A stretch of DNA of 7,189 bases from a virus (Duplodnaviria > Heunggongvirae > Uroviricota > Caudoviricetes), in the IMG/VR virus record IMGVR_UViG_2579778666_000001; one strand, 5' to 3'. Numbering within the stretch: the first letter of the stretch is position 1; the number at the start of each line of letters is the position of its first letter. Position numbers: made by a program. Positions 1-3,000 of the stretch are shown here, piece after piece.

Positions 1-3000
1 GCCCTGGTGTGTGGCATACGTGCCCCGGGGAAAGGATTTTTGATCGTCAATGGCGGGGAGTATTTCCAGTGCCGTGGCATCACGCCCGTCCTGCGGAACC
101 GGCAGGGCACTCACCGCATCATTCACCGCCTGCTGCAGTACATCCGGATCGTAGTCACGACCATCACGCGGAACAGGAATATGGCTTACCGCCTCCTTCA
201 CCATCTGTTCAAGCATCGGACGCACATCATCCGGGGTGATACTTTTTCCGTCCGCCGGTAGCGGAATATTTGCGACCGCATCATTCACCGCCTTCTGCAG
301 AACATCGGGATCATAGTCACGACCGTCGCGCGGAACAGGAATATGGCTTACCGCCTCCTTCACCATCTGTTCAAGCATCGGACGCACATCATCCGGGGTG
401 AGACTTTTACCGTCTGCCGGCTGCGGAATATTTGCAACCGCATCATTCACCGCCTGCTGCAGTACTTCCGGATCGTAGTCGCGACCGTCACGCGGTACCG
501 GAATGGCCCCCACCGCATCATCCAACATCGCCTGCAGAACAGAGCGAACCTCATCCAGCGTCACATGCTTCTGTAGTACCGCGGACAGGGAAGCCAGTTT
601 CTCTTCAGACTGCTGCGCCTGCGCGGCCATCTTTTCTTCAAATGTACGCTGTAAATCCGTTATCACCGCGGCGAATTCTTCGCCCAGTGCACGGATAATG
701 GACAGTTCACGTTCATTCATTTTTTCAGTATCCCCCTGAACATCGCCTTCACCACATCATGCTCTGTTTCACTGATTGCCTTATTACCGTCAGATGCGCC
801 GTCAGGCAGCTCGGCTGAAACTCTTTTCCCGGACGACGCGAACGGATCTTCACGGGCATCACGACGGGACAGCGCCTCCAGACTGTAGTTCTGCTGCTGA
901 AGATACAGTGCGTCACCTCCCGCAAGAGGCGGCAGGTTCTCCCGCTTGCGGGCCTCATTGGGCGTGAGAAGCGTATTTTTCACCGCCTCACCCAGCGTTT
1001 TCATGCGCCGTTCGCTGTCCATTCGCAACAGCGTGGTGACATCAAACTCCGTACTCTCGTTTTCCCCCGTCTCCAGCGCCTCATCCAGTAACAGTTCAAT
1101 GGACTCAATCAGCGTCTGCAGGCACTGGGAATAATACTGCTGCTCCAGCGCCTCCACGTTGTCACTGGAAGGCGGTTGTCCCACGCCAATCTTGTAGGCC
1201 GGGACACGGAACACCGAACAGACAATTTCAGCGGTCATCTTCAGTTGTTCCACCGTCTGCGCATCCACTGGTGAAAACGTCGTGGGGTTGTATTTCGCCC
1301 CGTTGCTCAGAATGGCCGTTTTTCCCGCATTTTCGCCGGTATACCCGCTGTCCCAGTTGCTCTTCAGTTTTTTCGCATTTTCTTCCGTAATACTGCCGGG
1401 GATCTCAATCACCCCGGACGGCCTGCCGCCATTTCTGAAAAAAGACGTCGAATTTTCCTGAATATGATGCCCCTGCATGGCCGCCAGCCCGGCGGCATAC
1501 ACCGGCGGCAATCCTATAAGCGGATGAAAAAAACAGTTAAACCGGTCGTGGATCACTTCCCGGGCAGGCACCGTCACCGCCTCAGTGATCCCACAGTTCC
1601 GGTCCGGCGTGATGCGGTAGAACACCTCGCCGTCATCCGCCACCAGAGGTTCAACCCGGCTCCAGTCCAGAATACGCAGTTCTTTGATCTGCCCCCGGGC
1701 ATTACGGATTTTCAGCACCACCGTATTGCCGTGACGCAGTTTGGCGTTCAGCCACAGTTCAAAAAACTGGATGCGGTTCTGCTGGGCGTTGGGACGACGA
1801 CAGAGGCGGGCAATATCCCCCCGGCGCGTTTCCCTGCGTATCCCATGCGCATCCGTCTGCATAAGACGCAGCCGCATTTTGGCGATATCCTGGGATATCA
1901 GCGAAATGCACGAAAACACCGCATGAAAGGAGAGGACACTTTCCGGATCGGTTTTCACGCCCTGCTGCCAGGCACCGGCAAAGGGCTCAGCCACCGCCTG
2001 AAACAGGCTGGTCCAGCCCGCCTCTCTTACGTCACGTCCTGATTTCTGGTTTTTTCGGGTTCGCCGTAAAAGGTTCCACATTCGCCATGCTCCGCATCAC
2101 GTTTCTTTTTCTGACCTGCCGGACGTCGCACCGTGATGTACTCCGCCTTTCCCAGGCGAACCAGCACCTCCGCACACGGCTGTGCCACATCACGGATATC
2201 CCCGACCCGGGCATCATGCGTGCCCTGCAGATATCGGATCTTTGCCATAACCTGTTACGGGAGGCGCACACCTCCCGTCCTCCTTATCAGACTCAGCCAC
2301 CGGACGCACTGCCGTAGTTCACTCCGGTGATCACCGCCACCGCCGCGGTACGGCGACGACGCCAGTTGATCCAGCGCTCCGCACGGATGGCCACGCTGCC
2401 TGTCTGGAACATGGAAACCAGCTCCACCGGCGACGGCGTGGTACTGTCGCCGGTCGGCTCAGACTGCATTTCCAGTGATGCCTCGCGGGACATATCCACT
2501 GCCACGCCGCCGTCATCCGCCAGATAAATATCCGGGGCATTCACCAGCACCAGCTGGTCACCCACGTACTGGGAGACAATCACCGGCAGCCCCTGGAAGG
2601 AGCCACCCAGCAGGGTCATGTCCGGGTATTCTTTCTGACCCAGCGCATTTTTACGCATGGACAGTGCCAGGGCATTGGTGCTGGACATCAGCCAGACCGC
2701 ACCGGTGGGCTGCAGGTTTGCTGCCACAAACTGACCAAACGCGGCCTCTGCATCCGCATCCGGGTTACCGGTTGATGCCATGCCCTTCACATCATGGGTG
2801 ATGGACGCCGGGGAGACATCTGCCACTGCGGCTTTTTTCGGGTCCACAAAGTCCGTGTCCAGACGCGCCACCACCGCTTCCGCCAGCGCATTACGGACCA
2901 GTGCATCAGCAGCCGGACTGGAAAAACGGATCAATTCTTCCGTCAGTACCGCAATGGCCGACACCTTCGCATGACTGAAGGTGATGGATTCAAAATCAAA

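Follow-up and report, generated by a model that had tools for sequence, protein, structure and literature searches.

A gene coupled to the portal gene and its repeat protein with a putative carbohydrate-binding-type end in HK97-like phage head modules

The window, that is, the whole stretch of DNA analysed here (7,189 nucleotides (nt) of IMG/VR record IMGVR_UViG_2579778666_000001, Caudoviricetes), comprises the head-and-packaging genes of a lambdoid, HK97-like prophage of the Escherichia coli type, which are read from the minus strand. By Megablast, the region belongs to long-tailed Shiga toxin (Stx)-converting and related E. coli prophages (Pankowvirus-like); its matches, about 90–95% identical, comprise 1,250 complete E. 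coli records besides 92 records of phages. Overlapping the end of the portal gene begins a gene termed X here, the subject of this text; to judge from its relatives, X is in all probability a genuine, independent morphogenesis gene of one lineage of HK97-like head modules. It lies in the window as follows (aa, amino acids; dN/dS, ratio of nonsynonymous to synonymous substitution rates).

720–1, minus strand: portal-coupled repeat-protein gene X, codons 1–240 of about 353 (open frame, PHROG matches, dN/dS)
717–720, minus strand: ATGA overlap of the portal stop (TGA, 719–717) with the X start (ATG, 720–718), read from the sequence
732–737, minus strand: Shine-Dalgarno (SD)-like motif AGGGGG, 11 nt upstream of the X start and formed by Arg-Gly codons of the portal C-terminus (junction alignments)
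505–720, minus strand: N-terminal helical region of X, aa 1–72 (AlphaFold2 model of the homologue P0021)
106–504, minus strand: repeat region, aa 73–205 (motif spacing, Tandem Repeats Finder, model)
1–105, minus strand: last motif, LPVPQDGR, and start of the C-terminal beta domain (RDATALEILPAIDDQKSFPRGTYATHQG...; family consensus, model)

Gene X and its junction with the portal gene

The start of X overlaps the portal stop as a preliminary description of this DNA had it, and 240 codons without a stop lead from there to the left edge of the window. That the gene goes on beyond the edge, also claimed at the time, is borne out by contig L002, which is colinear with the window up to the window's end (97.7% identity); there the open reading frame (ORF) of X comprises 353 aa and is followed, with an overlap of 4 nt, by the gene for a gp6-like head-tail connector. 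Because close contigs carry the ORF on to 353 aa, there is no stop or frameshift just past the window edge.

The protein had been described as carrying at least six IPxPxDG(R/K) motifs in alternating sub-repeats of 25 and 29 aa. Six [IL]PxPxDG[RK] motifs are found, at aa 73, 98, 127, 152, 181 and 206 (spacings of 25, 29, 25, 29 and 25 aa), five of them reading IPxPxDG and one LPVPQDG, and both sub-repeat sequences quoted earlier are exact; among 20,000 shuffles of the protein, four contained one or more such motifs. Each unit, alternately 25 and 29 aa long, consists of an [IL]PxPxDG[RK] linker and then a short helix. In the DNA, Tandem Repeats Finder reports a period of 162 nt with 2.4 copies and 90% matches at window positions 113–504 (score 672), and the first two 162-nt units are 91% identical to each other. 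In the near-identical prophages L002, L003 and L005 X measures 353, 407 or 422 aa, the two greater lengths being due to extra 162-nt (54-aa) repeat units; since such close relatives differ by whole units, the length of this stalk is polymorphic on a very recent time scale.

The structure was modelled with AlphaFold2 on the close E. coli homologue P0021, using 115 family sequences. Helices are predicted at residues 3–50 and 55–70, in agreement with the helical N-terminus of about 50 aa proposed before, with a predicted local distance difference test (pLDDT) score of 87–96 across residues 1–50, and short helices connected by extended linkers of low confidence make up the repeat region. X is acidic overall (isoelectric point (pI) 4.9, net charge about −17), as is its N-terminal region (aa 1–72, pI 4.55), and the C-terminal domain is near neutral to basic. 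Between orthologues dN/dS is 0.05–0.33 (for the C-terminal domain the pairs of L002 with L001 and L008 were excluded, as a 2-aa length difference had led to misalignment), and the purifying selection thus indicated supports the coding status of X.

The closest E. coli relatives have one annotated “phage portal protein” of 805–859 aa spanning both ORFs, and a run of G residues 12–16 nt upstream of the X start is five long (G5) in the window vs six (G6) in the nearest of them. From this, X might be the C-terminal remnant of a long portal gene that suffered a 1-nt deletion, and so a piece of a pseudogene or a sequencing error. The split form is indeed called “portal protein (pseudogene)” in some GenBank records; a paper on the Sakai prophages (PMC2669165) rates Sp6, Sp9 and Sp12 as having a defective portal, possibly on account of such a split; and the window has another 1-nt deletion, in the capsid gene.

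A census of the junction speaks for a different history. One genome per species was scanned with an alignment of the C-terminal domain, which gave 170 relatives, and 80 loci were kept; these belong to gamma-, beta- and alphaproteobacteria and one metagenome-assembled genome of the Clostridia, and a portal is detectable upstream in 72 of them. In 69 of the 72, X has an ORF of its own, with a start that overlaps the portal stop; one further locus has a fusion of 1,248 aa (Pantoea) and one a remnant. The overlaps range from 1 to 38 nt; the most frequent length is 4 nt (28 of the 69 loci), followed by 1 nt (11 loci), 8 nt (10), 14 nt (7) and 16 nt (5). In 65 of the 69, the X start is preceded at a distance of 5–15 nt by an SD-like motif (AGAGGA, AAGGGG, AAGGAG and similar), encoded by the conserved C-terminal (K/R)-G-(L/F/I) codons of the portal; as the presumed ribosome-binding site of X lies inside conserved portal codons, this short stretch would be under both protein and translational constraint. 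The tight coupling to the portal gene that had been postulated is seen far outside E. coli. In Salmonella phage FSL SP-016 a portal of 451 aa and an X of 347 aa (starting MNERELS) share an ATGA overlap as in the window, and in Rhizobium phage RHph_X2_26 portal and X are separate genes as well. The portal ends in the split frame with AMFRGILKK* in the window, AMIRGFLTK* in FSL SP-016 and AMLRGLLTK* in other Enterobacteriaceae.

In outgroups, the split frame is conserved with its stop and overlap, its SD-like motif and the C-terminal peptide of the portal; the arrangement of two translationally coupled genes is therefore the ancestral one, and the fusion of E. coli is derived from it by insertion of a single G (G5 to G6) in the SD-like run. 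Among 1,063 complete-genome E. coli records with the junction, the best copy agrees exactly with the fused G6 form in 747, with a G5 form of the same background in 31 and with the G5 form of the window in 3; phage 2851 has the fused G6 allele. That X is a remnant is thus extremely unlikely: the split-frame features are kept in the phages FSL SP-016 and RHph_X2_26 and across three classes of proteobacteria (69 loci), the exact 454-aa portal of the window is present in 72 blocks of independent public assemblies, and X is under purifying selection. The frameshifted long portal was the initial reading of the locus, and it was rejected as outgroup comparison and junction census point to the split form as ancestral.

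Fused ORFs lie, for example, at 8665–11082 of L001 and 2891–5470 of L008. A second, independent fusion of portal and X is that of Candidatus Pantoea communis (L036, 689–4435; 1,248 aa). Its stalk is built of many [IL]PxPEPLPDIxxMVxxAVSxI units, a variant without the DG, which means that the repeat region of X can exceed 600 aa.

Another way to obtain both forms would be a programmed −1 frameshift at the A-run before the portal stop (CTG AAA AAA TGA), by which a portal-X fusion were made beside the short portal. X does lie in the −1 frame relative to the portal, and the A6 directly before the stop in the window is a possible slip site for tRNA-Lys. Among split alleles, however, the run is not maintained, with GAGAAAATGA, TTACAAAATGA, GCCAAATGA and similar in its place, and many loci have overlaps of 1, 8, 14 or 16 nt of unrelated sequence. 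As the slip site is not conserved among split alleles, this candidate was rejected; such a frameshift is hardly to be expected here.

The position of the SD-like motif within portal codons, together with the overlap of start and stop, would imply coupled translation, and the output of X would then be close to that of the 12-copy portal and not to that of a capsid protein of several hundred copies.

A side observation concerns Escherichia phage vB_EcoS_phi330 (L009, PV189401), which differs from phage 2851 by 2 nt inserted into the portal tail and by three 1-nt indels within X that break X into pieces. phi330 is a plaque-forming Pankowvirus whose genome was Sanger-sequenced and assembled by hand (PMC12502783), so that errors are a possible source of the indels; real indels would mean that plaques can form without X. 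Mass spectrometry data for the portal region of phi330 were not found in the literature.

The X family, its beta end and its neighbours

A sensitive search of 1.84 billion representative proteins returned 5,403 clusters (50% identity) at E ≤ 1e-3, 627 of them at E ≤ 1e-30; in a first homologue search the best 120 matches were near-identical portal fragments of E. coli. Most family members are standalone proteins of 240–500 aa, and few have a portal domain. They share one plan, which consists of an N-terminal helix, 0–10 strict P.P..G repeats (counted in 115 homologues) and a conserved C-terminal domain of about 140 aa, the consensus of which reads GRDAxxIEILPxIDxxKSYPRGTYAxHxGGLWR...GWECIVDG in its first and YxxGDTVTWGGSxWHC...KPG...WxLAVKRGRDG in its second part. 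The exact X protein of Salmonella is found on at least 1,000 contigs.

The family is thus well represented in the databases, under names of another kind: “phage portal protein”, “phage gp6-like head-tail connector protein”, “carbohydrate binding domain protein” or “hypothetical”. The first of these labels has spread from the E. coli fusions to standalone X, and the standalone X of Salmonella goes by the second. Two PHROGs match X, phrog_1289 at residues 1–240 (E = 5e-93; distant homologues match it end to end) and phrog_2271 at E = 1.8e-193, restricted to profile positions 455–657, which is the non-portal part; both are labelled “portal protein” only because some of their members are portal fusions. 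The portal families PF04860 and TIGR01537 do not match X, be it the 240-aa or the 353-aa form; standalone homologues lack PF04860 too, and in the fused 859-aa protein TIGR01537 is confined to residues 45–388. That X belongs to no named family, as the preliminary description held, agrees with the searches: Pfam and NCBIfam gave sub-threshold helical noise (TetR_C_35, FliG_N, V-ATPase E) and a weak CBM_5_12 match, so that no curated family covers X; a sequence search of the PDB gave no match with X even at E ≤ 10; PADLOC found no defence system for X or two homologues; and precomputed Pfam matches to “QatB” are marked faint. A confident match to a characterised family of unrelated function did not turn up in any of these four resources, and literature searches found no paper on the family and no proteomic or structural data for any member.

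The end of the protein is more telling. In the model of P0021 the C-terminal domain is all-beta (pLDDT 94–98), and Foldseek superposes the last 45–60 or so residues of X on chitin-binding CBM5/12 modules in local matches with a probability of about 1.0; it is a small three-stranded beta fold that can be laid over solved chitin-binding domains. A profile of the X family, run against the PDB, found the chitin-binding domain of a chitinase (2rts, E = 0.0035) and the protein All3316 of an Anabaena contractile injection system (E = 0.011). Among the homologues, P0126 (29.8 bits) and P0200 (31.1) exceed the CBM_5_12 cut-off of 26.2 bits, and P0121 (24.7) stays below it. From the modelled fold, then, X appears to end in a conserved beta knob of the CBM5/12 (chitin-binding) type. 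The proposal that the full protein be examined for beta-helix, Ig-like or fibre folds has in this way led to a beta end, of CBM5/12 type; the N-terminus and the repeats are helical.

Compared with the window lineage, the knob is 39–68% identical across alpha-, beta- and gammaproteobacteria and the portal 39–70%; the knob thus tracks the portal, and the connector and the N-terminal helix of X diverge faster. Some homologues (P0123, P0222 and P0233) have 3–8 G-X-Y triplets after the knob; the X sequence of the window lineage has no runs of such collagen-like triplets.

The surroundings of X are as constant as its plan. A gp6-like head-tail connector gene follows directly in 67 of the 80 related loci, and a gene for a protease-scaffold-capsid fusion lies upstream on the same strand in 69. 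The earlier suggestion of a virion or assembly component fits this fixed place in the head module, between portal and connector, and is carried by it that far. The other genes of the module lie in the window as follows.

717–2081, minus strand: HK97-family portal, 454 aa (PF04860, E = 2.5e-81)
2027–2248, minus strand: 73-aa ORF (phrog_829, E = 3e-39)
2293–3411, minus strand: major capsid protein
3399–4229, minus strand: S78 prohead protease with a coiled-coil segment
4293–5954, minus strand: TerL
5951–6514, minus strand: TerS
6805–7170, minus strand: HNH endonuclease

The 73-aa ORF lies after the capsid gene and before that of the portal, whose annotated start it overlaps by 55 nt; it is annotated at the equivalent position in E. 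coli relatives and in FSL SP-016. At 3413–3414 the window has one base fewer than every relative compared, outside any long homopolymer; what is elsewhere a single gene for a 645-aa protease-scaffold-major-capsid fusion, intact in L001–L007 and spanned by one alignment in many of the 69 related loci, is here split into two overlapping ORFs. Either the prophage is defective or the missing base is a sequencing error. The HNH gene adjoins those of TerS and TerL, an arrangement that belongs to HK97-like cos packaging modules needing the HNH protein; near 6796 there is a C/G homopolymer whose length varies between relatives.

The smallest members of the family come from Sphingomonas sp. PsM26, with 97 aa at L082 (3884–4177) and at most 146 aa at L088 (3737–4177). 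The L082 protein comprises the N-terminal helix and the CBM5/12-type end only. Both genes directly follow a standalone gene for an S78-like prohead protease, and no portal is detectable within 4 kb upstream; these loci may be a reduced or satellite-like element.

Possible roles at the portal vertex

The role that we tentatively favour, as plausible rather than probable, is that of a low-copy accessory of the portal vertex, docked on its interior side and presenting a knob for a host-independent ligand. The N-terminal helix of X would dock on the C-terminal side of the portal, that is, the crown facing the head interior, non-covalently in the native form and covalently in the derived fusions of E. 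coli and Pantoea; the stalk would keep the knob at a distance from the portal, and the knob would bind something that is constant across hosts. Candidate ligands are a glycan of the N-acetylglucosamine type such as peptidoglycan, which would be encountered if X exits with the DNA, the packaged DNA itself, or the capsid interior. In function X could then be akin to the minor head proteins SPP1 gp7 and Mu gpF or to the portal barrel of P22.

Known portals have their C-terminus at the crown in the head interior. A place inside the head is suggested by two independent covalent fusions to this very end of the portal, by the dominance of the fused allele in E. coli and its occurrence in phage 2851, and by the conservation of the knob to a degree like that of the portal. 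As X is coupled to two neighbours of 12 copies, it is more likely a portal-vertex component of low copy number than a protein decorating the capsid. In Pseudomonas prophage AH14a the gene right after the portal gene encodes a “head morphogenesis” protein that was found in particles by mass spectrometry (PMC4936722).

Much of the same evidence can be turned outward. X may instead be an exposed fibre of neck, collar or head, probably a trimer, with the N-terminal helix anchored on neck or capsid, the helical repeats as an adjustable shaft, and the CBM5/12-type knob binding a surface or environmental glycan and so aiding reversible adsorption. The succession of helix, variable repeats (0–10 strict P.P..G) and knob would suit such a protein, as would the CBM5/12 fold itself, the tail fibres among its fold neighbours, the location of the gene next to neck genes, and the overall acidity, which is typical of fibres; trimers are suggested by some homologues in which the knob is followed by eight G-X-Y triplets. 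We nevertheless consider a fibre possible but rather unlikely. The knob is conserved like the portal from Rhizobiales to Enterobacteriaceae, whereas host-specific receptor-binding tips usually differ; the coupling to a 12-copy protein speaks against a decoration protein of high copy number; and in-frame fusion to the portal C-terminus, in the allele that dominates E. coli (747 of the 1,063 records), would trap X inside the head, as one has to expect from what is generally known of portal structures.

Several points weigh against the interior accessory as well. The presence of X in the virion and its placement in the head interior are proposals from sequence and a model. Two overlapping genes might also fuse by accident and the fusion be tolerated; besides, the SD-like run and internal ATG are retained in the fused E. 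coli allele, which could thus go on yielding free X. Strong acidity is unusual for a protein lying among packaged DNA. A variable repeat stalk, a CBM-type tip and collagen-like tails (P0123, P0222) are hallmarks of exposed fibres and adhesins, and the closest viral fold matches of the knob are collagen-repeat, CBM and tail-fibre proteins, the matches to collagen-repeat proteins in BFVD concerning the knob alone. Finally, the CBM_5_12 (PF02839) score of X in the window lineage, 19.6 bits, is under the Pfam gathering threshold of 26.2.

A third role would end before the virion is complete: X might act in assembly only, as a helical, acidic scaffold or chaperone that aids incorporation or maturation of the portal and is then removed or degraded. 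The helical acidic N-terminus and the repeats are scaffold-like, the gene is coupled to that of the portal, and a prohead protease is present in the module. A coiled-coil scaffold segment, however, is already contained in the protease-capsid fusion, and neither a highly conserved CBM-type knob nor free variation in repeat number would be expected of a scaffold, so that this role appears improbable.

If the portal-vertex accessory is carried to its full extent, X would represent a widespread class of portal-vertex proteins that has escaped recognition, made in step with the portal, attached at its C-terminal end, and with a helical stalk of adjustable length that carries a glycan-binding knob independent of the host; it would span the HK97-like temperate phages of proteobacteria, including the long-tailed Stx-converting ones. 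So general a statement is somewhat doubtful, conceivable as it is. Were it true in the form that X leaves with the DNA and grips the periplasmic peptidoglycan, X would be a new kind of siphophage pilot protein; in another form it would be a new kind of collar fibre. In any such case a conserved protein, stoichiometric with the portal and ending in a knob of a sugar-binding type, would be a new accessory of the portal vertex.

The family itself is already in the databases, unrecognised and misnamed, and its building blocks, namely a repeat stalk, a CBM5/12 knob and a minor protein adjacent to the portal, are of known kinds; it is the combination of stalk, knob and strict portal coupling that appears not to have been described before. 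Long-tailed Stx-converting phages, which are of medical relevance, carry X in their head modules, as do common Salmonella prophages. Its recognition as a separate gene would correct the annotation of thousands of prophages and alter how calls of a “defective portal” in prophage inventories of enterohaemorrhagic E. coli are to be read. Fortunately, the natural pair of split and fused alleles makes both the location and the role of X directly testable.

Comparison with known systems

SPP1 gp7 and Mu gpF (PF04233) are low-copy, portal-bound proteins located in the head, for which fusions to the portal and variable C-terminal modules are known. X resembles them in that its gene comes immediately downstream of the portal gene and overlaps it (69 of the 72 loci). 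It differs from them by its PxPxDG helical repeats and CBM5/12-type knob in place of a MuF fold; Pfam scans of X and ten homologues gave no match to Phage_Mu_F (PF04233), and sequence similarity was not seen either. With the portal barrel of P22 the likeness is topological only: in the fused proteins of E. coli and Pantoea the helix of X directly follows the portal crown on its C-terminal side, which is the position of the barrel, whereas X is natively a separate polypeptide and continues into repeats and a beta knob.

T4 fibritin (wac) and phi29 gp8.5 have an N-terminal anchor, a shaft of helical segments with regular linkers and a C-terminal beta domain; the shaft is a segmented coiled coil in fibritin, whose gene adjoins neck genes, and of the helix-turn-helix kind in the phi29 head fibre. 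The modelled architecture of X, a helix, a helical shaft interrupted by linkers and a beta end, is like theirs. Sequence similarity to these proteins was not detected, though, and the knob of X is of the CBM5/12 type and not a foldon.

To CBM5/12 modules, lastly, X is linked by the fold of its last 45–60 or so residues and by the motif Y..GD.V.W.G..W....T...P. Such modules occur at the ends of tail fibres of the Agrobacterium phages 7-7-1 and Milano and in gp47 of Pseudomonas phage Pa193, besides All3316 of the Anabaena contractile injection system. Unlike in these, the module of X, a putative binder, forms one unit with an additional conserved beta subdomain; it belongs to a head-module gene and is conserved to the same degree as the portal.

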